A stretch of 64,000 nucleotides of DNA from Dehalococcoidia bacterium (GCA_965226775.1 CBDDEI010000002.1:269638-333637), one strand, 5' to 3'. Counted from the first letter of the stretch, positions 6,596 to 59,967 are shown. The notes: a model not told the origin generated them from the sequence alone. Made by a program: numbers and translations.

Positions 6596-8196
6596 GTGTC
6601 CCGTAACCTCCCAACGTGGTTCTGGGGCTGGTCCGCAGCCGTCCTGGCGGCAGCAGCGCTACCCTACCTGCTCGCGTGGGCGCTGGCGCCTAACGGCTAC
6701 CAGTTTACCGGCATGCTGGCGAACCCCCAGGACGGCTACTCCTATGTGGCCAAGATACGCCTGGCCGCCGAGGGCGGCTCGAGCGGCTGGAGCGGCTGGC
6801 TGCCCTACGCCATCCATGCCTATGGCGATGCCCCCATCTATCCGCAGTACGTGCTTTTGGGGAAGGTGAGCGCCGTCACTGGCGCACCGCCAGTTTTGGT
6901 CTATCATGGCGCAAGGGTTGCCGCCGCGGCGTTCCTGTTAGCCATGACCTTGCTCCTACTCAATCAACTTATCAAAAGCGAAGAGGCGCGCAAGACCGCG
7001 TTCATCTTTGCTGCGGTTGGGGGTGGCCTCACCTGGCTCACCGTGCCCTTTGGCGCGCTGGGATCAGACGTTACCATCCCCGAGTCGACGACCTTCGGCG
7101 GCAGCTTCGCTAACCCCCACTTCCCTATGGCAACCGGCCTGCTGTTCCTGGTGGCGATGGCAGCCCTCCGAGGCCCCCTCAGCAGCCCGCGCCTCGCCTT
7201 CACCGGCCTCCTCGCGAACCTCGCCGCCATCGCTATGCAGCCCTTCCTGTGGGTTACCCAGGTGGCGGTCGGCAGCGTATGGGCGGCGCTCATGATAGGC
7301 AAGGGGCGCACAACCCCCTCAGCCGTGCTGGCGCGCTGGCTATCGGCGGCTCTCCTCCTGGCCCCGTCGGCCCTCCTGCTGCTGCTTCTGGCGCGCGCGC
7401 TCTACGGAGACCCCGTCCTAGCCCAGTGGAGCGCGCAGAATGTGACGCTCTCGCCACCGCCTGCCACTTATCTCATTGGCTATGGCGCGCTGCTGCCTCC
7501 TGCGCTGGCGGGCCTGTGGACGCTGTGGCGCACACCGGACGAGGCGGGGTGCCCCCTCGCGCCGCGCTCTTCGTCATCGCGTGGGCTGTCGCCGGATGCG
7601 CGCTGCTCTACGCGCCCGCGCCCTTCCAGCGCCGCCTCAGTGAGGGCTTGCAGCTTCCCATCGCCGTCTTGGCCGCAGCCGGGATTCACAGTCCGCTGCT
7701 CGCCGCCCTGGGCGAAGCGTGGCGTAGGAGGACACGGCTGCTGGTTACGGCCATCGGGTGCGCGAGCATCTTCTGGCTCACCTACACCAGCGTGGCGGGC
7801 GCGCTCCTGCTGCGGGACGGCTTCTACTTGAGCGACGATGATGCCGCGGCCCTGACCTGGCTGACCGACAACGCTATCCGCGACGACCTGCTGCTGGCCG
7901 CGCCCGTCATCGGCAACGTCGCGCCGGTCTACGGTCCCGCCCGCGTCTACTGGGGCCATCCCTATGAGACGCCCACCGCGGCCTTGCGAGAAGCCGCCGT
8001 ACGCCGCTTCTACCAGCCCGAGACTGCAACCGCCGAGCGCTGCCGCATCCTAACCGAAGGCGATGTTACTCTCATCTACGCGGGCCCAAACGAGGCGCGT
8101 CTAGGCGGCGCAAGGCTGGACGATCAGGCGCTGGGGCTGGCATCGGTCTACGAAAATTCGAGCGTCACCATCTATCAGCGCGCGTCCGCCTGCTAG
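6596..8196 (+). CDS. polytopic membrane protein, putative GT-C-like glycosyltransferase (frameshifted near 7545-7560)
   Basis: ORF 6596..7831 is coherent and membrane-like up to ...LWRTPDEAG, then becomes P/S/R-rich nonsense. Frame-shifted ORF 7249..8196 becomes coherent from ...PRAALFVIAWAVAGCALLYAPAPF onward. The break is a 1-nt indel in GAGGCGGGGTGCCCCCTCGC. Merged length is about 530 aa. Confidence 0.5.
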
Positions 8197-8219
8197 ATAC
8201 GGACACTGGACACCGAGCC

Positions 8220-10517
8220 GTGACACTCCTGCGCGAGACCATTTTCACCAGCCGCTTGGCCGCACCGTTAGCCCTGGCAGCGCTCCCTGTCCTCTTCTTC
8301 TGGCGGCTCACCTTCCTGAGTGAGACCCTCTACTGGGGAACCCCCTTGCTCCAGTTCTACCCTTGGCGGTCTTTTGCTGTGCAGGAGTATCTCAGTGGAC
8401 AGATACCACTCTGGAATCCTCACGTGGGCCTGGGCGCGCCCCTGGCGGCCAACCTCCAGAGCGCTGTCTTCTATCCCCTAAACTTGGTCTATCTCCTTAT
8501 CCCCATTGAGCGAGCTATGACGGTCACGGTAGTGGGCCACATCGCGCTGGCCGGCCTCTTTTGCTACGGATTTGCCCGTCTTTTGGGGTTTAGCAAAGCC
8601 GGCGCATTCGTAACCGGGCTGACCTTTATGTTCAGCGGCTACGTGGTGGTAAGGGCGGGCTTCTTGAGCATGACCAGCGTGGTCGCGTGGCTCCCCGCGC
8701 TGCTCTGGAGCATCGAGGGCTTGCTCCGTGCTCATGCAGGTGGGCGTCGCAGCAGCGTTGCGTGCTGGCTGTGCGGCCTCGCGGCCATCACCGCGATGAC
8801 GCTCTTGGCCGGCCACGCGCAGCTCGCGGCCTACAGTCTGGCGGCGGCGAGCGCGTACCTCCTTGCCCGCTCCTGGTCTCGCTGGGGGCAGATGGCGACT
8901 GCCGGCGCGGGCCTCGCGCTGGGCGCGGCGCTGGCGGCGGTGCAGCTTCTTCCGACGCTTGAGCTAGCGCGCTACTCGGAGCGCCAGTCCGGCGTGGCCT
9001 ACGATGTAGCCACTAGCTCATCACTGTGGCCGGGGCAGCTTCTGGGCCTCCTCTTCCCCAGCTTCTTCGGCAGCCAGGCCGCCGGCGATTGGTGGGGGCC
9101 CGGACCCTTCTGGGACGGCGCGGTCTACGTGGGCGTCCTGCCTTTGCTGCTGGCCTGCTACGGACTACGCTTTGCGCCCAGGGGGCAGGCTTGGTTCTTC
9201 GGAGGACTGGCTCTCCTGGGCGCGTTCCTGGCGCTGGGACGATACAACCCGGTCTTCCCCTTCTTTTTCGACAACGTCCCCGGCATGAACCTCTTTCAAG
9301 GCCCGGCCCGCTTCTGGCTCTGGTGCACTCTTGCCGCGGCCATCCTGGCCGGCTATGGCTGGGAGGGCCTCCGGTCGCGCCTCAGTCCCGGCGGCTGGCG
9401 CTGTGGGCCCTGTTGCGGCGGCGGTCGGCCTAGGCGTCATCGGCGCATCCGCCGGCGCAAGCTTCGTACTGCCGCCCAGCACTGCGTTTGGCGCAGCGGC
9501 TATGGGCGGCGCTTGGCTCCTGGCGACGGGACTCCTCCTCAGTGTGCCGCGAGCGCGCTTCCCCCGTCTCTGGTCCGCGTACGCGCTCATGCTTATCCTC
9601 GCCGACCTCTCTATCTTCGGAATGCCCCTAAACACAACTACAAACGCGCAGCTCTATGAGTCGCCATCCAGCGCTGCGGCCCTTGCGCGGCGGACTGAAG
9701 CCGGCCTCGACCGCATCTACACGCCCGAGACTACTTATCAGTGGCTCCAGGAGCGCTACTTTAACTTGCGGGCCTTCCCTGCGGGCGACTGGCAGGACTT
9801 GCAGCGGCTGCGCGATGCGGCCATGCCCAACCTTGCCACCGCCGAGGGCCTGTACGAGGTCTACAACTACGACCCGCTCCGGCTGGAGCGCCCGCTCCTG
9901 GTCATGCGAGCCGCGGAGCCCAGGGATTCCAAAGCCCCCTGCTGGACATGCTGGGGGCGCGCTACATGCAGACGCCTGCGGAGCCGGCAGTGGATGCGGA
10001 TAGAGAGGGGAACGCCTTGGTCGTCCCACAGAAGCGCGCACGTCCCCTCCCGCGGGCCTACGTGGTATCGCACGTCTTGAGCGTCCCCACCAAAGCCGCT
10101 GCCCTAGCAGCCATCTCTGACCCAGCCTTCGACCCCGCTGCGACGGCCTTCGTGGAGAGCGGGCATCCTGTGCCTGAGGGCCGGCCCGGCGCGCTCCAGG
10201 CAGCCCGCATCGTGGAGTACGGCCCCCAGCGCGTGGTTATTGAGACGCCGGCCGCGGACGCGCCTGGCCTCTTAGTCCTGTCCGACGCCTACTACCCCGG
10301 CTGGCGCGCAGAGATTGACGGCCGCGCCGCCGACATTCTTCCGACGAACGTGGCCCTGCGCGGTGTGCTGCTTGCCGGCGGACCCCACCGCGTTGTCTTC
10401 CAGTACGATCCCCGCAGCTTCAAGATAGGGCTCACCGTCACCACCCTCGCGCTTGTTCTGCTGACGGCCATCGCGGTCTGGGGCTTGCGCGCCTACCGCA
10501 TGGAGCAGCCGGCATGA
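8220..10517 (+). CDS. YfhO-family membrane protein (GT-C-like), carrying two frameshifts
   Basis: Three successive ORF pieces (8220.., 9331.., 9948..) are each coherent only in part. The junctions at about 9380 and 9925 restore one roughly 765-aa protein. It has a YfhO-like C-terminus ...LVLSDAYYPGWRAEIDGRAADILPTNVALRGV.... Confidence 0.6.
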
Positions 10518-24474: not shown

Positions 24475-25032
24475 ATGACGAGTTCGCAATTTGTAAACCG
24501 CAGTCATGAGAGCATCCTCAATGACGTACTTGCGCGGTTATTCCGTGAAAGGTACGGACTACCTGCTGTAGCTGAAACACTCCGGCAACGCCAGCGGCCT
24601 GACATAGTGGCACGGCGAGTGGACGACGCGGTCATCGTTGAAGTTGAATTTGAGCCTGCAGATACAGTAGACGCAGATGCGCTCTCCCGGCTTGGAATGG
24701 AGATAGACGGGAAACCCGTACAGGTTGCATTCGCAGTTGCCATTCCTAATGCGCTGAGGACTACTGAACAGCAGCATTTACTAGAGCGTCTTGCTACAGC
24801 CTCTTTCAGATGGCAAGAGTGGCGTTCTGATGGCACTTCCGGACCAAAGGTGAGTGGAAATTCCGCTGATTTGGCTCAAGCGGTACGGGAAGCTGTAGCA
24901 CCTGGTGGAAATCTAGAGCAAGCTGTTGCCCTCCTGGATGAAGGCACGCGCTTCGCGGGGGGCGCGCCTCTATTCCTCACCTGGCACGCTAACCAGAATC
25001 GCCCGAATCTTTGGAACTGCTCCCAGCCTTGA
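24475..25032 (+). CDS. hypothetical protein; possible PD-(D/E)xK-like nuclease module of a split type IIG enzyme
   Basis: 185 aa at the start of a low-GC island. ...RPDIVARRVDDAVIVEVEFEP... is a PD...EVE arrangement. It stops 10 nt before the ATG of the methyltransferase gene. The downstream reading frame is open through this region. Confidence 0.4.
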   Translation: MTSSQFVNRSHESILNDVLARLFRERYGLPAVAETLRQRQRPDIVARRVDDAVIVEVEFEPADTVDADALSRLGMEIDGKPVQVAFAVAIPNALRTTEQQHLLERLATASFRWQEWRSDGTSGPKVSGNSADLAQAVREAVAPGGNLEQAVALLDEGTRFAGGAPLFLTWHANQNRPNLWNCSQP

Positions 25033-25042
25033 AGTGGGCAAT

Positions 25043-27334
25043 ATGGCCTCGTTAATAATGACTAACGCTATGTTGTTTCAAGAGAGGCTTGCAAGCGCAG
25101 ACGCTGATGTTCCCTCAGTTAACAGCGCTCGAGACGGAAACGGGATTTCGCGAACGAAGCTCATGGACGCATGGAGCATCATTCTCGAAAAGGATTACTG
25201 GCCCGTCTTTCACATGGCCCAAGCTATTGCTGAGAGCTTGTCAGACATTGAGGGGCCTGCCGTGTTATCAATGTGCGCTCTGACTTCTGAACGTTTACTG
25301 AGCACTGGCGCGGTGGGAAGGCACGACCTTGCTGGACGAATATTCAATAGGCTGATATCCGACCGTAAACTGCTCGCAGCATTCTATACAACAATCCCAG
25401 CCGCTACATTACTGGCTGGGCTCGCACTCTCACCAAAACGGTGGTCAACAATTAACTGGAGTGACGCCGAAGCAATAAATGACTTGCGGGTCGTTGACCC
25501 GGCCTGTGGCACAGGCACCTTGCTGATGGCAGCCTATCGTCAAATTGTCGATAACGTTCGTGCAGCTTCATATGGGAAGCTTGACGAATTGAACCTTCAC
25601 AAATCTTTGATTGAGAATGTCCTGCATGGCGCTGATGTTGTCCAAGCAGCAATCCATCTGACTGCTTCAACGCTGGCAGCTATGTCGCCTTCCGTCCGCT
25701 TCAGCCAAATAAATCTCCACACGCTAAAAATTGGGATTGACCCAGACCTGCAAAGCATCAACCTGGGATCTTTGGATTGGCTTGAAGCAGGGGAGATACA
25801 ATCCTTTTTCTCTGCCACAGGTGAGCAGGTTGCAGCAGCCAAGGGAATTACAGGAGCTCTCGTTGAAAGACCACGAGCAAACGTAGTGATTAGTAATCCA
25901 CCATATACCCGCCGTGGTAGCGATGGGAGTGCTTCCGAAGAAATTTCTAGAGTTTTTGCACTCCCTATAGGTGACCCAGATTCCCAGGATCGTATAGCAA
26001 AGCGCACTGCTCAACTGATTCATGGCACAGGAGCTAGTCAAATAGCTGGGCACGCCTCCTCTTTTACCGTCTTGGCAGATAGGCTTGTTGTTCCAGGCGG
26101 CCGGATAGCCCTGGTACTCCCTGTGACCGCTATTGCAGGAGAATCTTGGTCTAGCATTAGAAAACTTATCTCCTCTCGTTACGAAGTGGAATTTGTGGTT
26201 TCATCACACGATGCGTCCTCTCCCGGTATGTCCTTCGATACAGGAATCGCTGAGATTCTGCTTGTAGCCCGTCGACATAATCAAGCGGAGATACCAACTA
26301 ATCGCGGCTTATTCGTCAACATATCACGTGCTCCTACGCAGGTCACTGAAGCACTCGCATTATTAAATGCCCTTGAAGCGTCCGCTCAGGGATCGGTTCA
26401 TCGGTCCGATGGGCCACCAGTTGGTGGTACACCGTTGATCGTTGGCGGCGAGCAATGGGGCGAAATAGTCAATGGGCCACTGGGTTCTGACTCCTGGACA
26501 GCAGCACGTTGGAGGAGAGCTTTAGTAGAGCAGTTTGCTTCAGCGTTGGAACGTGGAGAACTATGGTCAGCTGAAGGCACTCGGCTCTTAGAACGTATTC
26601 CTGTTGCACCTCTTCATGAAGTTGCCGTTATTGGGCCGCAAGATCGTCAGATTCGCGGCTCTCTTGGAGCTTTTGACGCTTATCCAGGTTGGGACTCACA
26701 GGCCCAGTTCCCCGCCATTTGGCGACAACAAGAATCAATTCATAGAACATTACAAACTGAGCCTAACGCACGATTGGTTCCGCAAACAGGTCGAGCTTAT
26801 GCCAAACTTTGGGAACAGGCAGGCACACTTCACATTACTCGTGACGTTAGGTATAACTCACAACGGGTCGCTACCGTCCGAACGGCAAGGCGCGTTCTAG
26901 GCGTTCGTGCCTGGCACTCATTAAATGTCCGTGGTGAACCTGAAGCAACAAAGGCTCATCGTGAGATGGCTCTGGCGCTATGGTGTAACTCTACGCTGGG
27001 ACTCCTACTCCACAGCAATCACGCTAACCGAGCTCAGGCTGGGCGTGGAACCGGGAGCAAGGGAATGCTTGAGTCCTTACAGACTTTAGACGTTCGCATA
27101 CTCGCCCCTTGGCAGCTTGATGCGGCGGAAAGTATTTGGCGAGACATGGAAAACCGCGAATTTCAATCGTTCCATAGCTGCGCGATAGATCCCGCTCGTA
27201 TCGAACTAGACAATCGCGTACTCCATGATTTATTAGGTTTTGGGCTAGAGAGTGAGACGACAGTCCAACGTTTGCGTCTCGCACTTGCAGAGGAGCCCTC
27301 AATCCATGGTTCTAAAGTGCCCCGTTTACCATGA
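25043..27334 (+). CDS. N6-adenine DNA methyltransferase (Eco57I/type IIG-like) with C-terminal target-recognition region
   Basis: SAM motif I VVDPACGTGTLLMAAY. Catalytic motif IV VISNPPYT. About 430 aa of non-MTase C-terminal sequence. Low GC. No separate HsdS/HsdR nearby. Confidence 0.7.
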   Translation: MASLIMTNAMLFQERLASADADVPSVNSARDGNGISRTKLMDAWSIILEKDYWPVFHMAQAIAESLSDIEGPAVLSMCALTSERLLSTGAVGRHDLAGRIFNRLISDRKLLAAFYTTIPAATLLAGLALSPKRWSTINWSDAEAINDLRVVDPACGTGTLLMAAYRQIVDNVRAASYGKLDELNLHKSLIENVLHGADVVQAAIHLTASTLAAMSPSVRFSQINLHTLKIGIDPDLQSINLGSLDWLEAGEIQSFFSATGEQVAAAKGITGALVERPRANVVISNPPYTRRGSDGSASEEISRVFALPIGDPDSQDRIAKRTAQLIHGTGASQIAGHASSFTVLADRLVVPGGRIALVLPVTAIAGESWSSIRKLISSRYEVEFVVSSHDASSPGMSFDTGIAEILLVARRHNQAEIPTNRGLFVNISRAPTQVTEALALLNALEASAQGSVHRSDGPPVGGTPLIVGGEQWGEIVNGPLGSDSWTAARWRRALVEQFASALERGELWSAEGTRLLERIPVAPLHEVAVIGPQDRQIRGSLGAFDAYPGWDSQAQFPAIWRQQESIHRTLQTEPNARLVPQTGRAYAKLWEQAGTLHITRDVRYNSQRVATVRTARRVLGVRAWHSLNVRGEPEATKAHREMALALWCNSTLGLLLHSNHANRAQAGRGTGSKGMLESLQTLDVRILAPWQLDAAESIWRDMENREFQSFHSCAIDPARIELDNRVLHDLLGFGLESETTVQRLRLALAEEPSIHGSKVPRLP

Positions 27335-27543
27335 CGCAACCACCGCTGCCTTACACCCTTGACTCCCTGCGAGCTTTCTACGCCGGCCTCGGCCTGGCCC
27401 CGGAGGACGGGGATCTTGCCGCCGCGCTTGCGGCCATCAACGCGCTGCTGCAGAATGCCGCCAGCCTGGACGAGATAACGCCGCTGGAAGAAGACCCCGG
27501 TGCGGCGTTCCTTCCCTGGGCCGCGGACGCTCCCGAGCCCTAA
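27331..27543 (+). CDS. small GatC/AtzG-like (DUF4089-like) partner protein of the downstream amidase
   Basis: 70 aa, high GC. Its start overlaps the upstream stop (ATGA). It ends 4 nt before the amidase start. Size and position match small amidase-partner proteins. Confidence 0.4.
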   Translation: MTQPPLPYTLDSLRAFYAGLGLAPEDGDLAAALAAINALLQNAASLDEITPLEEDPGAAFLPWAADAPEP

Positions 27544-27547
27544 GCCT

Positions 27548-28966
27548 ATGCCTACCGAACTCTGGCAGCGCTCCATCGCAGATGCCGCCGACGCCATCCG
27601 TAGCGGGGAGGTCTCTCCCCTTCAGCTCACTGAGAGCTACCTGGAGCGCATCCAGCGCGTGGACGGCCGCTATCATGCCTACATCACCGTCATGGCAGAC
27701 CAGGCCCGCGCCGCCGCCCAACAAGCAGAGGCAGAGCTTGCCAGCGGCCACTACCGCGGCCCCTTGCATGGCATCCCAGTTGCGGCAAAGGACCTCATCT
27801 ACACCAAGGACGCGCCCACCTCTGCGGGCTCCACTATCTTCCGTGAGCACCGTCCCAGCTTTGACGCTACCATCATTCAACGGTTGCAGGACGCGGGGGC
27901 AATCCTCCTGGGCAAGACCAACCTCCACGAGTTCGCCTACGGCACCACCGGCGTTAACATCACCTACGGCACACCGGAGAACCCTTGGGGCGCGGGACGC
28001 CTTCCCGGCGGCTCCAGCAGCGGCTCCGCGGTGGCCCTGGCCGCGGGCCTCTGCGCGGGGGCTATCGGCAGCGACACCGGCGGCTCTATCCGCATACCCG
28101 CCAGCCTCTGCAGCGTGGTAGGCATTAAGCCCACCTACGGCCGGGTGAGCCGCTACGGCGTCTTTCCCCTCGCTTGGTCGCTAGACACACTCGGCCCTAT
28201 GGCCCGCACGGTGGAGGATGCGGCGTTGCTCTTGAACGTCCTCGCCGGCCACGATCCTCTCGACCCTATGTCTGTAAATACCCCCGTGCCCGACTACCGC
28301 CGCGGCCTCCAGAACGGCGTGCGGGGCTTGCGTATTGGCGTACCCCGTGACTATTTCTTTAGCCGCATCGACCCCGAGGTCCGCGCCGCTGTGGATGAAG
28401 CCATCGCCACGCTAGAGGGCCTTGGCGCGCGGGTCACGGAGGTATCGCTCCCCCACCTCGACCACCTCACGCCTATCTATAGCCCCCTCATCCAGAGCGA
28501 GACCGCGGCCTTCCACCTGCCGCTGCTGCGGAAGCACTGGAACAGCTACTCTCCGCAGGTGCGGAGCCGCCTGCTGCCTGGGCTGGCCATCCCCGCCTCG
28601 GTCTATCTCAAGAGCCAGCGGGCCAAAAACGTCGCGCTGCGGGAGTACCGCGCGCTCATGCAGCAGGTTGACCTGCTGGTGACCCCCACGGAGCCGGTGG
28701 CCGCCCCGCGCGTGGACGCCACAGCAGTAGAATGGGAGGACGGCCCGGAGGAGATTATCCCTGCGCTGGGACGTTTCGCCCGGCCCTTCAACCTGCTGGG
28801 CGTGCCCGCTTGCTCGCTGCCCTGCGGCTTCACCCGCGAGGGGTTGCCCATCGGCCTGCAGCTTGCCGGACGCGCCTGGGACGAGGCGACAGTGTTGCGC
28901 GCCGCCTACACCTACGAGCAGGCGACGGAGTGGCACGAGAGAACACCTGAAATCAAGGAGCATTGA
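27548..28966 (+). CDS. amidase-signature family amidase (GatA/AtzE-like)
   Basis: Amidase signature GGSSSGSAVALAAGLCAGAIGSDTGGSIRIPASLCSVVGIKPTYGRVS. Start set at MPTELWQ... rather than the overlapping upstream Met. Confidence 0.85.
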   Translation: MPTELWQRSIADAADAIRSGEVSPLQLTESYLERIQRVDGRYHAYITVMADQARAAAQQAEAELASGHYRGPLHGIPVAAKDLIYTKDAPTSAGSTIFREHRPSFDATIIQRLQDAGAILLGKTNLHEFAYGTTGVNITYGTPENPWGAGRLPGGSSSGSAVALAAGLCAGAIGSDTGGSIRIPASLCSVVGIKPTYGRVSRYGVFPLAWSLDTLGPMARTVEDAALLLNVLAGHDPLDPMSVNTPVPDYRRGLQNGVRGLRIGVPRDYFFSRIDPEVRAAVDEAIATLEGLGARVTEVSLPHLDHLTPIYSPLIQSETAAFHLPLLRKHWNSYSPQVRSRLLPGLAIPASVYLKSQRAKNVALREYRALMQQVDLLVTPTEPVAAPRVDATAVEWEDGPEEIIPALGRFARPFNLLGVPACSLPCGFTREGLPIGLQLAGRAWDEATVLRAAYTYEQATEWHERTPEIKEH

Positions 28967-29469
28967 GCGTGGTTAGACCCAACCGGTACGAAGAGCTACT
29001 GCCCGCCGCGGCGCGGCAGCGCGCGGTGCGCCTCAAGAACGGCGAAGCCGCCTGGGACAAGCGAGACATGGACCAGATTGTCGGCGTGCTGGCCCACGCC
29101 AAGCTGGCCATCGTAAGCATGGAAGTATGGGCCGTCAGCGAGGACTCCGCCCTGGGGCGCATCCCCTTCCGCAACCCTGCCAACCCTATGGAGACCATCG
29201 AGCCGCTAGGACCCGCCGCGGATGGCCGACTGGTCTGGGGCGAGCTACCCACCCGCGACGGCCAGGAGACGGTGTTCCGCATGGGCGGTCACGATCACCC
29301 CGACCCCGGCGAGTCCTGGGAGGAGTTCGTCCTGGCCAAGGCCGACCTCGCCCGCACCATCGTCACCGAAGTCGACAAACGCGTCGTCCCCGCCGTCCGA
29401 GACAAGCTCTACTTTGAGCTCACAGCGGAGGAGAGCGAATCCAACGAAAGTACAACGAGCACTATATGA
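28963..29469 (+). CDS. hypothetical protein (TTG start, 168 aa)
   Basis: The ORF overlaps the amidase stop. High GC until the last ~10 codons, which enter a low-GC island. Confidence 0.45.
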   Translation: MSVVRPNRYEELLPAAARQRAVRLKNGEAAWDKRDMDQIVGVLAHAKLAIVSMEVWAVSEDSALGRIPFRNPANPMETIEPLGPAADGRLVWGELPTRDGQETVFRMGGHDHPDPGESWEEFVLAKADLARTIVTEVDKRVVPAVRDKLYFELTAEESESNESTTSTI

Positions 29470-29524
29470 ACGGGGTTATCATACATTGCCACAGCTAGAA
29501 GGAATAAAATATGATAATGATGCT

Positions 29525-29914
29525 ATGGAGAGAATAATTCTGCCAGACGATTTGCCGGACGTGCCAGCCAACCTGGTCTATTCCGCTGCAAAACTACCAC
29601 TCGTTGCTTGTGAAGCACGATTCAGCCCAATACTAAAGATTGCTGAAGTTCCTCCTAGTGATTATCAAGAAAGGATCCGTCATGTTTTCTCAGAGCTAGC
29701 TGAGGTTCAAGGACTGGAAGCTATTGCAAAGGAAGGTCTACCAGCACTAGAGATTACAGATCTAGGTAGGTCATGGGCTTTCAGCACAGCCAACGAAACA
29801 GTTACAGCTCACCTTAAAGCCGGAGCTTTATCACTACAGACTACGAAAAATGACCAAAGTACTCTCACTATCCAGAATTCAAAGACCGTTGGAACCTTGC
29901 TTACCAAGCATTGA
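29525..29914 (+). CDS. hypothetical protein, gene 1 of low-GC four-gene cassette (start uncertain; alternative TTG 29486)
   Basis: Coherent frame ...MERIILPDDLPDVPANLVYSAAKLPLVACEARFSPILKIAEVPPSDYQERIRHVFSELAEV.... No recognisable domain. Confidence 0.4.
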   Translation: MERIILPDDLPDVPANLVYSAAKLPLVACEARFSPILKIAEVPPSDYQERIRHVFSELAEVQGLEAIAKEGLPALEITDLGRSWAFSTANETVTAHLKAGALSLQTTKNDQSTLTIQNSKTVGTLLTKH

Positions 29915-30288
29915 TAGACACGTATAAAATACCCATCGTAAAACGTTTAGGGCTTAGGTATGTGAACCAATTCGAACCACCGGGTTCTGGCAATTGGAGT
30001 GATTTTATCAATCCAGTACTATCCAGCGAAGTACAAGTCTTTGGAGAACAAGTTGTCCGTGCTTCAACACTTCTGACCTTACATGTTGATAAGTATCTGG
30101 TAAATGTCCGTCACGGCATAGGGAACGATAAGAAGTATGATCTAGATTTTGACATGTTCTCAGACGCAGATACAAATGTGGATAGCGTGCCCGCGTTAAT
30201 CGATCATTTTCACAACGTGATTACTAGGCTTTTTAGATGGTCTATCACTGAACAGATGCATGCAGTATTGGAGCCAAAGCATGAATAA
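29911..30288 (+). CDS. hypothetical protein, gene 2 of cassette (TTG start overlapping upstream stop)
   Basis: 125 aa. (M)IDTYKIPIVKRLGLRYVNQFEPPGSGNW.... The TTGA overlap, or else a frameshifted continuation of gene 1. Confidence 0.4.
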   Translation: MIDTYKIPIVKRLGLRYVNQFEPPGSGNWSDFINPVLSSEVQVFGEQVVRASTLLTLHVDKYLVNVRHGIGNDKKYDLDFDMFSDADTNVDSVPALIDHFHNVITRLFRWSITEQMHAVLEPKHE

Positions 30289-30658
30289 CTATCAGCCAGC
30301 TGAACTATTGAAAGAGCCTGATTCTAGGTATGCGAAAAGGACCTTTGCAGAATGGGCTGACTTCGATGGCGGAACCGCGATCTATGTGAGAGGGGAGCGA
30401 CTAACTGTATCTTTAGACAATCCAAATGCGACTCCAATTGAAGAGATCCGCCCAGTTACTCAGAAAGTTAGCATGGAGACGTTGAAGCTCCGCCTTATTG
30501 CCTTCCGTCTCATTGAGAACGTACCCTCTGAAATCTTGCCAGAGGTTGTAAATGAACTGCGTGAGTCAATTGAATACGAACAGCGCATGTTAGAAGAACG
30601 TTCGAGGCAAGTGCGCTACATTGCTTCTGAAACGAAGATGCTGCCAATCTTGAGCTAG
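30281..30658 (+). CDS. hypothetical protein, gene 3 of cassette
   Basis: MNNYQPAELLKEPDSRYAKRTFAEWADFDGGTAIYVRGERL.... Its start overlaps the upstream stop by 8 nt. Confidence 0.4.
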   Translation: MNNYQPAELLKEPDSRYAKRTFAEWADFDGGTAIYVRGERLTVSLDNPNATPIEEIRPVTQKVSMETLKLRLIAFRLIENVPSEILPEVVNELRESIEYEQRMLEERSRQVRYIASETKMLPILS

Positions 30659-30666
30659 CATCGGCA

Positions 30667-31254
30667 GTGTCCCCCCATCTTCTCCCGCCACATACTGGCC
30701 CTCTACGTCAGGGGGAGATCCTATCAGATTTTCCGGTGCCGTTGGTTCAATATACAGACGCTGCTTCAGAAGAGCCTGGAAAAGTTGGCGTAAGATTTTG
30801 CACCTATCCCTGGATAATTGTCCTAACTCAAGAATGTGATTTAGATCTAGATTACAAGGCGCGGAATCAAATAGCCGCTGTAGAGAACTCTCCCCCAGTT
30901 TCCAAAGACAAACTCCTTCTTGGCACTCTTCTTTGCGCGGGCTATCCACTTGACGCGGTTACAGCTGGAACGTATCGCGAAGGTGCCGGCAAAATGAAGA
31001 GAGAACATGCCGCCATGCTGGCACAGCACAGAATGGAACGGTTTGGTTTCGTAGATGCTTACGCAGGTCTGCTAGAGACACCAATAGTCTTTGACTTCAA
31101 ACTGCACGTTACAGTCCCCCTTGAATATATTTACGCCACTCTTGAAGACAGCAGTAATATGCGAACCTTTTGCCTAAATATGCCTTGGCGGGAACAAATG
31201 TCATCGCGCTTTTTGTTCTATTTAAATCGCGTGGCCCTGCCAGAAGTAGACTAG
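30667..31254 (+). CDS. hypothetical protein, gene 4 of cassette
   Basis: 195 aa. ...LRQGEILSDFPVPLVQYTDAASEEPGKVGVRFCTYPWIIVLTQECDLDLDYKARN.... No recognisable domain. Confidence 0.45.
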   Translation: MSPHLLPPHTGPLRQGEILSDFPVPLVQYTDAASEEPGKVGVRFCTYPWIIVLTQECDLDLDYKARNQIAAVENSPPVSKDKLLLGTLLCAGYPLDAVTAGTYREGAGKMKREHAAMLAQHRMERFGFVDAYAGLLETPIVFDFKLHVTVPLEYIYATLEDSSNMRTFCLNMPWREQMSSRFLFYLNRVALPEVD

Positions 31255-31297
31255 CCTAGTCTCCAATCCTATTGCTATAGCTACCGTTCCATCCCCG

Positions 31298-31330
31298 CGT
31301 TCCTCACGCCGCGCCAGGCTGGCTAGTGCT
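31298..31330. repeat. 33-nt direct repeat, copy 1 (31/33 identical to 34045-34077)
   Basis: CGTTCCTCACGCCGCGCCAGGCTGGCTAGTGCT. Confidence 0.6.
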
Positions 31331-31459
31331 AGCTGAAGCGGACTGAGTCTGTGATGCTTTAGCCCTCTCCAGAGGCGAATCATCTTCGGCGACAGGCCAA
31401 TGCTACCCATCCAAATCTAGGTTGACCCCTTATCCCTTCTCACCTAGACTGAATCCTGT

Positions 31460-31535
31460 GGGGCTATAGCTCAACTGGGAGAGCGCAGCGTTCGCAATGC
31501 TGAGGTTAGGGGTTCGAGCCCCCTTAGCTCCACCA
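31460..31535 (+). tRNA. tRNA-Ala (CGC)
   Basis: GGGGCTATAGCTCAACTGGGAGAGCGCAGCGTTCGCAATGCTGAGGTTAGGGGTTCGAGCCCCCTTAGCTCCACCA. G3:U70 identity pair, anticodon loop TTCGCAA, encoded CCA. Confidence 0.85.
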
Positions 31536-37324: not shown

Positions 37325-38344
37325 GTGGACGATGCACGAACCATGATAGATGAACTTACAACTGCAGTTGCTTCCTTAAATCGCTATATCTCACAGAATA
37401 GGAACGTGGATGAATGGTATGTGAGGCGTCTCCTTCGGGATATTGTTGTACCTCGACTGGACGAAGTGTTCCGAGAGGTATTCGCTGAGATTGACAAGTT
37501 CCATGATCTTGGAAAAGACGCCAAGGAGGTTATTCACTATACCAGCCTCGACATGCTAGTCTCAGTCCTTCGTGATAAAGCTGAAGAGAAAGAGGCTTTC
37601 GTCCGTATGAACGACTCCTTTCATCTCAATGATCCAGAAGAGGGACAGTATCTAGCCCGCCGTATCGAAGCAATCGACCAGTCCGGATGGTTCGGAGAAA
37701 AGAAGGACCTTCACGCGTATATTGCCTCGTTTATCCTCCCTGACGAAAAGAAGGACCAAGAACTACGAGATGAGGACAACCTCAAGTATTGGCTTGCTTA
37801 CGGACAACAAGGCAAAGGCTGCTCAATTAGGTTTCCTGTAAGCCACAATCGCTTTCGGCGGGTTCTCTACGGACAGCAGAAGGTGACTCGCACCTTGAAA
37901 CGCCTGGACCTGACATCATTGTGGAATTCCTTGAAGCCCTTAGCAACTAACCGAAACCAAGAGGTTAGCCGCACCGCCAGAGATATGCTTTCGGAGCTAA
38001 TCAGAAGGAACATCGCCCGAATCCTTTATCTGTACAAGGACGACGCCTACAAGTATGAACAGGAATGCAGAATGGTGAGGTCAGTCCTAGAAATCACTGA
38101 TGAAGATATCTTTTTCGAGCCACTGAAAGAACGGGACTCGCCACATAACATAAGACACTACTATCATGATAGCGACCTAAGCATTGACCATATTCTGGTT
38201 ACAGGAAGCTTAATCACATTAGGTCCCCTCGTTCCCCGTCCCTACAATGTGATGTATTACATCAACACGCTTTTGGGGAAAGCACACTTACGCGGGCCTA
38301 AGGTCAAGATCTCGAAAATACCTTACCAAGAACCTTGGCGATGA
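37325..38344 (+). CDS. hypothetical protein, DUF2971-like (HYTS...NDPxE motifs)
   Basis: 339 aa, low GC. ...VIHYTSLDMLVSVL...FVRMNDSFHLNDPEEGQYL...YIASFILP.... Convergent with, and overlapping the 3' end of, the JAB-E1 gene. Confidence 0.4.
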   Translation: MDDARTMIDELTTAVASLNRYISQNRNVDEWYVRRLLRDIVVPRLDEVFREVFAEIDKFHDLGKDAKEVIHYTSLDMLVSVLRDKAEEKEAFVRMNDSFHLNDPEEGQYLARRIEAIDQSGWFGEKKDLHAYIASFILPDEKKDQELRDEDNLKYWLAYGQQGKGCSIRFPVSHNRFRRVLYGQQKVTRTLKRLDLTSLWNSLKPLATNRNQEVSRTARDMLSELIRRNIARILYLYKDDAYKYEQECRMVRSVLEITDEDIFFEPLKERDSPHNIRHYYHDSDLSIDHILVTGSLITLGPLVPRPYNVMYYINTLLGKAHLRGPKVKISKIPYQEPWR

Positions 38345-39770
38345 GCCTCGCAAATCCACCCCTAGGCCTAGTAGACATCGGAGTCGGTTCCTGAAGGTAG
38401 AATGGAGCTACCCTGTCACCCTGCATGCGATGCTCTCGGAATGAGCAATGGGCCTCGCACTGCATATTGATAGTCCTTAAGTCCGCTGTGACAAACTGAT
38501 AGTCCTGCTGCTGTACAAGTGGCCACCAGTCTGGCGATAGAATATAGCGAATCATAAGATTAACTTCCATGGCGGCGACGCTCAAACTGAAGGGGAACAC
38601 ATTTTGATTTCTGTTCCGTTCTGACTCTGGCAAATTGCTAGTGTATGACGGATCGGAGAGAGAACCATCCAATTCCATAACGACGTTGCTTGAGTTGTAT
38701 TGACCGCTGCACCGCAGACATTGGTGAAAAGGCGTGACAAGGTGAGCCCGCCAATGTGCTGAAAACAACTTGTCCTTAGACGTATCTGTTTCTACTGAAA
38801 CTCCGCCGTCAATCACAGGAATCATATGAGCCTGAGCTATGTAGTTCAGCACATCACGTGGGAGTGGACGATCAACGCAGCTGAAGATGACATCGCAATC
38901 CAGGGCCGCACTATACGCCTCTTTGTCATGAATAGATTTTGGTAGTGCGATGATGTCAACGCTGTCCGCAGTAGCGTTCAGGCGTATTGCTTCGGAAGCG
39001 ATTTGCACTTTTTGCTTACCTATGTCCCTAGTCGTCGCGTAGAGCAGTCTATCGAGGTTGTGTTCTTCAACCTCATCGGGATCGATTAAGGTAATGCGAG
39101 TGACGCCTATCCGGGCCACGGCCTCCGCGACAATCGATCCCACACTACCAAGGCCTACAATGCCAACCCTTAAACGTGCGATGGTGCTTTGCACGTCGCG
39201 GCCCCACGTATCGAAAGTTCTCCTGAGAACTTCTTTACGCTCAGGTGGAGGTTCTACTTGGTCGTTAAAGTAGATTTGGTAGGACTTCGAACTGACAACC
39301 CGAGTTTTAGCACACGAATTGCGCCGCATCCCTTTGCCATCTCGTTGCCAGAAACGAGAACTCCAGTAGCCGTCACTACCGATGGTCAGCCCGACCAGTG
39401 GGAAGCCTGTCGCTCCAGCTGGATAGGCCAAGACATCTCGCTCAGCCTCGACGTCAGCATCACTCATGCTCTGCCAACCTGGTCCGGGGTGGCTGTGCAT
39501 AAAGGCCACACCCGCCTGTCTTTGACGAGCTGTGTTTATTGCCCGTGCTAAGTAATTAGGCTGGAAGCTGGCATTCCCGTGTAAGAGACGCTCGCCCTTT
39601 TGGGGGAGAAGAATCTCATACACAAGAGCCGTGTATCGTTGATTCCCGGTGGAAGGACGCCACAGGCCGAAGCACAAATCCTCCTGAAGGTCATTTCTCC
39701 TGTAGTGTTGCAGCAAGTGATCGCTTGAAGCAGAGTTCGCCTCCGCCGAAAGCGCCACCTCAAATTTCAT
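38304..39770 (-). CDS. JAB/MPN metalloprotease - ThiF/MoeB E1-like adenylyltransferase fusion protein
   Basis: Start set at MKFEV... (ATG 39770, ATGA overlap with the E2 stop). N-terminal domain YEILLPQ...FMHSHPGPGWQSMSDADVEAE is JAMM-like (E...HxH...S..D). C-terminal domain VGIVGLGSVGSIVAEAVARIGVTRITLIDPDEVEEHNLDRL... has the E1 Rossmann fold, plus a Cys-rich region CLRCSGQ. Confidence 0.7.
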   Translation of the reverse strand: MKFEVALSAEANSASSDHLLQHYRRNDLQEDLCFGLWRPSTGNQRYTALVYEILLPQKGERLLHGNASFQPNYLARAINTARQRQAGVAFMHSHPGPGWQSMSDADVEAERDVLAYPAGATGFPLVGLTIGSDGYWSSRFWQRDGKGMRRNSCAKTRVVSSKSYQIYFNDQVEPPPERKEVLRRTFDTWGRDVQSTIARLRVGIVGLGSVGSIVAEAVARIGVTRITLIDPDEVEEHNLDRLLYATTRDIGKQKVQIASEAIRLNATADSVDIIALPKSIHDKEAYSAALDCDVIFSCVDRPLPRDVLNYIAQAHMIPVIDGGVSVETDTSKDKLFSAHWRAHLVTPFHQCLRCSGQYNSSNVVMELDGSLSDPSYTSNLPESERNRNQNVFPFSLSVAAMEVNLMIRYILSPDWWPLVQQQDYQFVTADLRTINMQCEAHCSFREHRMQGDRVAPFYLQEPTPMSTRPRGGFARLIAKVLGKVFSRS

Positions 39771-40138
39771 ACGTCCTTCCAAATTTTCCGTAGGTGTTCG
39801 TTGATGTAGCCGTACATATGCTTCGTCGGTAGCTGGTCCCAAAGCTGACCCGGCGGCCTGCTCATAGCCAACCATGCACATCCAGACACTTCGTAGGTTT
39901 GTCCCGGCCCCCCCCTACCATCGGCAATTGGAGGGCTAACGTGGAGCCAATGAGGGGGATATTCGGGGTACCCCTCATCTTGGAAGCTGACACCTACTAG
40001 AACTGGCGTACCCTTATGTGAGCCAGTTTCGATGGTGTAATTGAATGCTACTACGACTCCCATTCCGGAATCGAACGTCTGGGTTTCGTAACCAAGGGAT
40101 TCTAATTCTTCTCGTACTCGGTTTGCACTATCGGACAT
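39767..40138 (-). CDS. E2 (UBC)-like ubiquitin-conjugating protein homologue
   Basis: 123 aa. ...YPEYPPHWLHVSPPIADGRGGPGQTYEVSGCAWLA... has the YPxxPP and His...Cys spacing reminiscent of the UBC fold. Translationally coupled to the E1 fusion. Confidence 0.5.
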   Translation of the reverse strand: MSDSANRVREELESLGYETQTFDSGMGVVVAFNYTIETGSHKGTPVLVGVSFQDEGYPEYPPHWLHVSPPIADGRGGPGQTYEVSGCAWLAMSRPPGQLWDQLPTKHMYGYINEHLRKIWKDV

Positions 40139-58701: not shown

Positions 58702-59967
58702 CTATGCAGCAAGCCGCGCCGTCGACGCCTTCGTGTGGTCCTTGACGCGATCGGCGAGGCGGCGGACCTCGCCAAGGATGTCTTCCGGCGTGCCGCTGAG
58801 GTCCAACGAGGCGACCTCTATCGTCTTGCCCGCGTGCTTGATCTTGTACTCGCCGGGTTCGTCCTCGCCGGCAGCGTAGACCAGCATACCCGAGGGCAGA
58901 TCGGCCGCCGTGCAGTAAGCGAGCATCTGGTAGATGTCGGGGTGCACGAAGCCTTGCGGGTCAAGCTTCTTGTATTTCGCGTCGCCGACGAAGAGAGGCC
59001 GCGCGCCGTTCTTTCCCGGACTAGGAGTCCACCACGACAAGTCCGGCTGCATCAAGATGCGGCTGTCCTCGTCCAGCGTAAGCGTCTCCTCGTGTTTCCA
59101 TTGGCGTTCGGCGAGACCGAGCACCTCGCCCAGCGCGACATAGAGGAACCGCTCGAATACCTTGTTCATGTCGATGAGAAAGGCCGCGCCGGCAACCTTG
59201 CCGTGAAGGAGCTCCAGGCTCGAATTTTCGATGATAAGCCGCGCCAGTTCCACAGCTGGGCGGTAGTGCTCGTCGAGCCGGGTGTAGCGAACTTCGGGCA
59301 GCGCCCCCCGCTGGTACGAGCCGAGCCCGACCGTTGCGAAGGCGGGCCGGAGGCGGCGGACCTCCTGCCTGGCGGCCTCGGAGCGAATGAAGGTGTGCCC
59401 CAGCAGGTGAATCGCGGTCTTGAGTAGCCGGTTCTTCTCGATGTCCTCGGTGTATTCGTCGTACGCCACCTCAATGGGCAGCGGGACGGCGAAGCGCCGC
59501 CCTATCTGGTCGCCGAAGCGGATGCGGCCTCGCACGGTGTTGAGCGCGTCCTCCTCCCGCCGGTAGCCCTGGAGCAGGCCGCGTTGGATGGCCTGCCGGG
59601 TGCGGTGAGCAAAGGCGAAAACGATCGCTTCAAGGCAGTCGTCGTCGCGGTCCAACACGACGGGATCCCTCCGCCAGTTCTTGGGGTCCATCGCGTAGGT
59701 GACCAGGAACATAACGCGGTCGATGGGGATCTTGGGCCGCACCACGACGGCGAGCTCACCGATGTTTATGGCGCCGATGTAGGACGTCGGCTTGAGGCGG
59801 TACGCGCCGTCTTCGTTGGGCGAGGGCGTAACCTCAATGTGCGCGTCGACGGTCAGCGCATGCAGCTGGTCTTTGTTGAGCCGGACGTTTCCTGGGTAAG
59901 ACGCGTACTCTTCTAGCTTAAGCTCATGCATCGCCAGCGTTGTTCTCAGGTTGCCCGTTGTCCGCAT
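58702..59967 (-). CDS. mcrC: McrC-like type IV restriction endonuclease subunit
   Basis: 421 aa. C-terminal PD-(D/E)xK ...QPDLSWW...FVGDAKYKKL.... Lies immediately downstream of McrB. An alternative start is ATG 59931. Confidence 0.8.
   Translation of the reverse strand: MRTTGNLRTTLAMHELKLEEYASYPGNVRLNKDQLHALTVDAHIEVTPSPNEDGAYRLKPTSYIGAINIGELAVVVRPKIPIDRVMFLVTYAMDPKNWRRDPVVLDRDDDCLEAIVFAFAHRTRQAIQRGLLQGYRREEDALNTVRGRIRFGDQIGRRFAVPLPIEVAYDEYTEDIEKNRLLKTAIHLLGHTFIRSEAARQEVRRLRPAFATVGLGSYQRGALPEVRYTRLDEHYRPAVELARLIIENSSLELLHGKVAGAAFLIDMNKVFERFLYVALGEVLGLAERQWKHEETLTLDEDSRILMQPDLSWWTPSPGKNGARPLFVGDAKYKKLDPQGFVHPDIYQMLAYCTAADLPSGMLVYAAGEDEPGEYKIKHAGKTIEVASLDLSGTPEDILGEVRRLADRVKDHTKASTARLAA

Follow-up and report, generated by a model that had tools for sequence, protein, structure and literature searches.

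A TIGR04255 gene, a small middle gene and a predicted MazF/CcdB-fold gene beside tRNA-Ala in a Dehalococcoidia bacterium: a candidate three-part toxin-antitoxin or abortive-infection module in apparent decay

What is encoded by the short, AT-rich gene cassette that lies between an amidase gene and an alanine transfer RNA (tRNA) gene in a Dehalococcoidia bacterium, and does it belong to a defence or toxin system? The cassette is part of a stretch of 64,000 nucleotides (GCA_965226775.1 CBDDEI010000002.1:269638-333637), referred to here as the window, in which positions are counted from the first nucleotide. A first-pass annotation of this DNA described four tightly coupled open reading frames (ORFs) without a recognisable domain, the first two of which might be one frameshifted protein of about 255 amino acids. 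ORF calls reproduce all four positions, including the TTGA shared by ORFs 1 and 2 (29911-29914) and the 8-nucleotide overlap further on. However, the module consists of three genes, not four: T, a disrupted gene of the TIGR04255 family (29525-30288, plus strand), a small middle gene, g3 (30281-30658, plus strand; 125 amino acids), and g4 (30667-31254, plus strand; 195 amino acids). The lack of a recognisable domain holds, by sequence, for g3 and g4, but not for the first two ORFs. With slightly better than even confidence, the three genes are interpreted as a toxin-antitoxin or abortive-infection-type module, with g4 as putative toxic effector, g3 as putative neutraliser or adaptor, and a decaying copy in the window.

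ORFs 1 (29486/29525-29914, plus strand) and 2 (29911-30288, plus strand) are the two parts of a single TIGR04255 gene. In NCBIfam, ORF 1 matches positions 3-93 of the TIGR04255 model (25.1 bits, E-value 1.3e-5) and ORF 2 continues colinearly on positions 114-249 (60.8 bits, E-value 1.7e-16); the model has 252 positions and a cut-off of 30 bits, and T homologues from other operons score 93-146 bits over positions 2-252. An intact allele was found by an exact-protein look-up of g4 on an independent Logan contig (L094; ERR14231557). In a blastn alignment with window positions 29399-31449, 2040 of 2040 bases are identical, and the sole difference is an extra 11 nucleotides in the window (CGAAAAATGAC, 29844-29854, plus strand). 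Without these, the T frame is continuous (...GALSLQTTKYSHYPEFKDRW...) and the protein has 250 amino acids, in keeping with the single protein proposed earlier, and aligns end to end with family members. With them, the first part runs to a TGA at 29912-29914 and the remainder lies in the -1 frame up to a TAA at 30286-30288; the TTG "start" of ORF 2 is a by-product of this frameshift. Since the sister lineage described below and seven other family members lack residues at this site, the window allele is a derived insertion. The inactivation of T by this insertion means that the window copy of the module is probably crippled.

Were the split of ORFs 1 and 2 an artefact of assembly or sequencing, or else a programmed frameshift, the module would be intact in the cell, and the existence of an allele without the 11 nucleotides in an independent read set could be read in this way. 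This is nonetheless a very improbable explanation, as the insertion is non-repetitive, unlike a homopolymer-type error, and its sequence occurs once in the window and is not a duplication. Recoding is not needed either, because the intact allele is simply colinear; furthermore, a TGA stands in the downstream frame just before the position at which the slip would be required, and there is no slippery heptamer. Homopolymer error and programmed frameshifting were therefore ruled out by the comparison with the intact allele. T is also fragmented into two or three pieces at two other loci (L055, 4823-5654; L036, 82-876), so its decay extends beyond the window.

T begins at ATG 29525, where the window reads MERIILPDDLP and the sister protein MPDLLLPDALP. 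A promoter-like TTGCCA-18-TATGAT (29486-29515, plus strand; a pattern match only, at 10 of 12 consensus positions) ends 9 nucleotides before this ATG, and the TTG at 29486, previously taken as the start of the first ORF, appears to be its -35 hexamer. For g3, ATG 30281 overlaps the T stop codon (30286-30288) by 8 nucleotides. In the sister lineage a stop codon precedes this start, with a conserved GGAG located 8 nucleotides before the ATG, and an independent gene call on L094 gives the same start. ATG 30260 may serve as an alternative start, and was set aside in favour of 30281 on the sister-lineage evidence. After a gap of 8 nucleotides, g4 follows with a GTG at 30667. In the public source record T is cut into two ORFs, and g4 is mis-annotated: only its last 86 residues are given (30994-31254, from Met110; protein P0279), with the GTG at 30667 overlooked.

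The same three genes recur far beyond this locus. At five distinct metagenomic loci with g4 homologues, a TIGR04255 protein of 250-280 amino acids is followed by a small ORF and g4. A motif scan with one genome per species found a g4 relative in 231 species genomes; 80 loci were kept, and 78 had enough upstream DNA to be judged. T lies directly upstream of g4 on the same strand, with a small ORF between them, in 77 of these 78. The exception (L009, 4877-6570) combines a middle gene typical of class A (see below) and g4 with a first gene of 214 amino acids that the T profile does not match. Pairwise distances of T and g4 are correlated (r=0.81, reached by 0 of 999 permutations; r 0.79-0.82 within the classes of middle gene described below), which indicates that the two genes travel and evolve together. 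The distribution is sporadic rather than core: g4 occurs in Acidobacteriota, Cyanobacteria, Chloroflexota, Planctomycetota, Patescibacteria and Proteobacteria, among others, and in the archaeal genera Methanothrix, Methanoperedens and Methanomethylovorans. The triad of T, a small protein and a MazF-fold protein is thus near-obligate, and it is described in no family database or paper among those searched. It could be asked whether the ORFs are chance frames in AT-rich non-coding DNA, for which only the atypical composition speaks; this is refuted by homologues of every ORF in the same order at more than 80 loci, and its probability is negligible.

What kind of protein is g4? A profile search of 1.84 billion cluster representatives (clusters at 50% identity) recovered 2201 relatives at E<=1e-3, of which 420 reached E<=1e-30; a word-indexed search found only six homologues. 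Across 116 sequences, residues C57, R125, R181 and R188 are invariant, and Q15, E17, Q55, D58, D62, N121, D137, D143, K145 and Y156 are nearly so, with motifs QGEI (15-18), TQxCDL (54-59) and DFK (143-145). The AlphaFold2 model built from these 116 sequences is confident, with a predicted local distance difference test score (pLDDT) of 92.7 and a predicted template-modelling score (pTM) of 0.88, compared with a pLDDT of 73 from seven sequences. Its core has six strands and a C-terminal helix, with four extra helices, and agrees with the MazF/CcdB fold, an SH3-like barrel that carries a C-terminal helix. With both models, the top 50 Foldseek matches in the PDB are exclusively MazF, Kid, MoxT, YdcE and CcdB; the confident model attains an E-value of 6e-4 at best, a probability of up to 1.0 and target-normalised template-modelling (TM) scores of 0.54-0.62. 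Supporting this, the top five matches in a viral structure library are PemK-like proteins or endoribonucleases.

On this modelling, g4 is predicted to be a fold-level relative of the MazF/CcdB toxins that stands outside that family by sequence. The proteins differ in several respects: g4 is about 80 residues longer than MazF and CcdB, carries four inserted helices, has its own invariant cysteine and three invariant arginines, appears not to keep the MazF catalytic loop, and is accompanied by an obligate third gene, TIGR04255. By eye, its QGEI and hhhh-TQxCD strands resemble the RGD(I/V) and VLVIQND strands of MazF and Kid, including the N-terminal G-(D/E)-I motif. No Pfam, PADLOC or PHROG model matches g4. 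More broadly, no component of the module has a match in PHROGs, or in PADLOC-DB v2.0.0 at E<=1, in a search that covered the window proteins and intact homologues of all three genes; a PADLOC search, proposed earlier as a check, therefore places the module in no catalogued system. At one locus (L008, 3196-4344), two tandem g4 paralogues of 195 and 184 amino acids follow T and the middle gene.

The middle protein falls into two classes, as indicated by a bimodal T-g4 spacing, and two clades of the triad differ in which class they carry. Window g3 belongs to class A (65-142 amino acids; 40 homologues at the same operon position), in which a variable N-terminal part leads into a helical core that is conserved (RLxCHxLxxxxPxxxLxExxExLxxxxxFY), and the C-terminal tail ends in ...RPxFxhxEE or QVRPPIVLES. 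Class B proteins are shorter (54-86 amino acids), with a low-complexity N-terminal part and a C-terminal KPxRRVIIRAKI; a C-terminal motif is kept in both classes. A small gene directly adjoining a toxin gene is a familiar arrangement, and g3, 8 nucleotides before g4, conforms to it, as does the middle ORF of essentially all loci. MazF/PemK/Kid and CcdB are likewise preceded by a small, fast-evolving, coupled gene. Searches of Pfam, NCBIfam and PDB sequences recognised no domain in g3.

The third component, T, belongs to a family that NCBIfam labels "sporadTIGR04255" and for which no function is assigned; the literature searched contains no mention of it. T has no Pfam match and no relative among PDB sequences, and searches of Pfam, NCBIfam and PDB sequences gave no DNA-binding or SecB-like signature. 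Its conserved motifs are RxGLRY and LDxD. No fusions were found, the best 120 of 548 relatives all being stand-alone proteins of 256-331 amino acids without a Pfam domain. Internal duplication was considered and rejected, as an hhalign comparison of the N-terminal and C-terminal halves gave no signal.

On several plasmids T is found with other downstream partners (L090-L093). For example, in Sinorhizobium (L091, 3782-6260) and on a Paenarthrobacter plasmid (L093, 3980-6351) it is followed by larger proteins of 278 and 326 amino acids, which keep QGD and (S/T)QxCD motifs and are not matched by the g4 profile; these shared motifs point to a wider superfamily. The middle protein of L091 (195 amino acids) looks HTH-like by eye and ends in GKPVKKAKLRIR, like the basic tail of class B, and its sole PDB match is a non-significant one to MbcA (E-value 0.3). 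In L090 (3977-6150), the partners are unrelated proteins of 288 and 218 amino acids, next to a multiubiquitin/ThiF/DUF6527 module and IS110, and in L092 (3989-5291) T has an unrelated partner of 147 amino acids, next to VapC, a DNA methylase and cas6. A tentative extension of the toxin reading, held with rather low confidence, is that T could be a general infection sensor or switch, used with various effectors, that releases from g3 a MazF-fold "QxCD" effector with its own catalytic set (Cys57 and three arginines); the triad would then be an unrecognised abortive-infection or defence system.

The same unrelated partners in L090 and L092 could equally be cited for a different explanation, in which no toxin is involved: T would be an enzyme and g4 a nucleic-acid- or ligand-binding partner that reuses an SH3-like barrel, serving a niche role in RNA processing, modification or stress. 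The conserved RxGLRY and LDxD motifs of T, the apparent lack of conservation in the MazF catalytic loop together with the separate invariant set of g4, and the syntenic position of the cassette in a relative (see below) are all in line with this. Yet every structural neighbour of g4 with a Foldseek probability above 0.9 is a toxin, and sporadic spread, taxonomic mixing of the kind left by horizontal transfer, many pseudogenes and mutually unrelated neighbourhoods do not fit a niche cellular role, so that the explanation is considered improbable.

The neighbourhoods themselves were surveyed across loci. Among the 143 genes that directly adjoin the triad, matches at E<=1e-5 fall in 134 different Pfam families, and the triad therefore has no fixed context. 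The commonest neighbours are defence genes (by raw counts, with no background rate): type IIG and type ISP restriction-modification enzymes (3), type I restriction-modification components, EcoRI, DISARM DrmA and DrmMI, Mokosh MkoA (2), mads mad2 (4) and a PLD-helicase. The recurrence of homologous cassettes beside defence genes, which the first-pass annotation had proposed to look for, is thus seen at the level of these counts. On a plasmid of Methylocystis iwaonis (NZ_CP143318), which carries a well-conserved copy, the triad comes after an annotated abortive-infection gene and a recombinase; NCBI annotation names TIGR04255 there and leaves the other two genes hypothetical. This plasmid copy was found with a proteobacterial g4 as query; the window's own g4 found no phage or plasmid copy. 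The triad is also present on 4 viral contigs.

How long has the cassette been at this locus? A sister lineage encodes a T homologue, 54% identical, on a 29-kb contig (L095) and on two contigs from other samples (L096, L097). L095 carries, in order, a homologue of orf22826 (69% identity), the amidase (62.6%), a duplicated orf168 homologue (60%), T (54%), g3 (46.5%), g4 (~65%) and tRNA-Ala(cgc), with the cassette at 8001-9730. Here, T and g3 are intact, and g4 (9125-9729; also in L096 and L097) has a 1-nucleotide deletion (CACAT-CATGG compared with CCTATCCCTGG) that is identical in the three independent assemblies. A different gene is therefore damaged in each lineage: T in the window and g4 in the sister. 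Either the cassette has long occupied this locus, or repeated replacement has taken place there. Its proteins have diverged between the lineages (46-65% identity) about as far as those of the flanking core genes (60-69%), whereas its G+C content at third codon positions (GC3) is ~0.4-0.5 in both lineages against about 0.8 (0.77-0.83) in the host. Since GC3 is low in both, simple vertical descent does not explain the cassette; this suggests either an acquisition hotspot beside tRNA-Ala or a compositional constraint. Integration into the tRNA gene was also considered: no flanking direct repeats were found, and, with the cassette on the 5' side of the tRNA, a fresh tRNA-targeted island was ruled out. 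Metagenome scans with orf168 and the T subclade for further relatives of the lineage returned nothing close.

Persistence of the module at one locus in two diverged lineages, and decay that in the sister lineage began with the putative toxin, are features that might be expected of a selfish addiction module, chromosomal or plasmid-borne, without any role in phage defence, in which T would act as transcriptional regulator or antitoxin chaperone. Tight gene coupling fits such a module too. In omega-epsilon-zeta systems the genes are ordered accessory gene, antitoxin, toxin. The triad has the matching order of an accessory gene, a small protein and a toxin-fold protein, and resembles PaaR-PaaA-ParE and SecB-type toxin-antitoxin-chaperone systems as well in having three co-transcribed genes for a toxin, a small neutraliser and an accessory protein; however, none of T, g3 and g4 is homologous to their components. 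T shows neither the DNA-binding nor the SecB-like signature that these roles would lead one to look for, and, without a Pfam match or PDB-sequence relative, it does not resemble a SecB-type third gene. In addition, almost every copy has an intact T, which co-evolves with g4, yet in the window T is the broken gene while g3 and g4 survive, and defence genes recur beside the triad. Addiction without a defence role is accordingly regarded as unlikely, if somewhat less so than the non-toxin explanation.

The favoured reading thus remains that of a three-part toxin-antitoxin or abortive-infection-type module. It is suggested by the predicted toxin fold of g4, the small, fast-evolving, coupled upstream gene with a conserved tail, the sporadic cross-domain distribution, the defence-rich neighbourhoods and the recurrent pseudogenes. 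The breakage of T in the window, of g4 in the sister lineage and of T again in L055 and L036 is compatible with a costly or selfish module. The analysis establishes the gene structure, the insertion, the conservation of the triad, the co-divergence of T with g4, the modelled fold of g4 and neighbourhoods that vary and are rich in defence genes; from these we infer that g4 is toxic, that g3 neutralises it and what T does. In the proposed mechanism, g4 would inhibit growth as the effector, its most plausible target being RNA or some other nucleic acid; g3, translated just upstream, would neutralise it by direct binding, probably through its conserved C-terminal tail; and T would be an obligate third member that serves to regulate, sense or stabilise the g3-g4 pair. 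Of these assignments, that of T is the least secure. The survival of g3 and g4 without T argues that T is not the neutraliser.

Several observations weigh against this reading. Structural E-values for g4 are modest (6e-4 to 0.1), and the query-normalised TM score is only ~0.38, which is attributed to the insertions in g4. There is no sequence link to MazF or PemK: g4 has no Pfam match at E<=1, its profile finds no relative and no MazF among PDB sequences, an hhalign comparison with four approximate MazF/Kid sequences gives 0.1% probability, and by sequence profile g4 does not belong to the PemK/MazF family. Residues 29-40, the putative beta1-beta2 loop, include no invariant or near-invariant residue in the 116 sequences, so the chemistry of g4 may differ from that of MazF. 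In g3, no MazE, AbrB, RHH or HTH domain was recognised, and it therefore does not have the detectable DNA-binding, autoregulatory domain of a type II antitoxin. With T broken here but g3 and g4 intact, either T is not needed to keep g4 in check or g4 is not toxic. Phages and plasmids hardly ever carry the triad (0 phage records; 1 plasmid; 4 of 2.9 million viral contigs), the counts of neighbouring defence genes are raw, and a defence module that moves freely would not usually occupy one chromosomal locus in two diverged relatives, as the cassette does. Conservation in a core syntenic context had been named at the outset as evidence against a defence or toxin role; it is seen in part, with flanks 60-69% identical in the relative, while the wider distribution is sporadic.

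Taken at the level of the family, the earlier idea of a toxin or defence system is plausible. Its support comes from the coupled operon, the predicted MazF/CcdB fold of g4, the recurrence of the triad and the prevalence of defence genes among its neighbours; the part that does not stand concerns this copy, which is disrupted and is not a fresh tRNA-targeted island. A useful comparison is offered by type II Gabija (Liu-DS1), an anti-phage system validated by experiment, in which GajC, with a split MazF-like domain and a helical insertion, is an effector that defence requires and that acts under the control of a separate partner protein, the UvrD-type helicase GajB (PMC13069673). GajC and g4 share a split MazF-like fold with a helical insertion, a likeness at the level of the published description. 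In contrast to Gabija, the partner in the triad is TIGR04255 and not a GajB helicase, and Gabija lacks the small middle gene. No UvrD-type GajB stands beside the cassette, whose neighbours in the window are the amidase, orf168, the tRNA and a methyltransferase.

The surroundings of the cassette bear out its reported composition and location. It occupies a low-G+C stretch (29470-31400), with a G+C content of 0.42-0.50 across 29400-31400 against 0.64-0.70 in both flanks, and a GC3 of 0.37-0.50 against 0.72-0.82 in flanking genes. On the left, the amidase gene (27500-28966) bounds the cassette region, and its stop is overlapped by 4 nucleotides by the high-GC orf168 (28963-29469), which is possibly linked to it. 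The latter has no match in Pfam, NCBIfam, PADLOC or PHROGs; its homologue in the sister lineage is 60% identical and forms a tandem duplicate (167 and 159 amino acids). On the right, tRNA-Ala(cgc) (31460-31535, plus strand) lies outside the module and is kept in the lineage, including L095. It is preceded at 10 nucleotides by a promoter-like TTGACC-17-TAGACT (31422-31450; a pattern match only), and the spacer between g4 and the tRNA, at 205 nucleotides, is ~150 nucleotides longer than in the sister lineage.

Other low-GC patches of the window contain N6-methyltransferase, ThiF and McrBC genes, in line with the first-pass annotation, which had noted defence modules there. The first patch (24475-27334; G+C about 0.50-0.52, GC3 0.44) holds an ORF of 185 amino acids and a protein of 802 amino acids with weak N6_Mtase and MmeI_Mtase matches. 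L095 lacks this methyltransferase patch (24.4-27.3 kb) and has the orf22826 homologue almost directly before the amidase, so the patch was inserted more recently than the triad. Of the other defence-type genes, those for a DUF2971 protein and a ThiF-family protein lie in a lower-GC patch at 37325-39881, and McrBC in another at 58702-59967 (58.7-60.0 kb). The rest of the window is ordinary-looking chromosome that encodes a Mg-chelatase-like ATPase, PMT_2/GT87 glycosyltransferases, ABC transporter components and a catalase-peroxidase.

In summary, the locus provides a first functional context for TIGR04255, a family named until now only as "sporadically distributed", and delimits a large family of proteins with a predicted toxin fold, which runs to at least 2200 clusters at 50% identity and for which no annotation was found. 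The window and its sister lineage also constitute a natural experiment: with T broken in one, where an intact allele exists, and g4 in the other, they indicate which parts are dispensable without cell death. If the module is indeed a toxin-antitoxin or defence system, it would extend these systems by a new three-part arrangement, and the MazF/CcdB fold by a new branch whose conserved chemistry differs.

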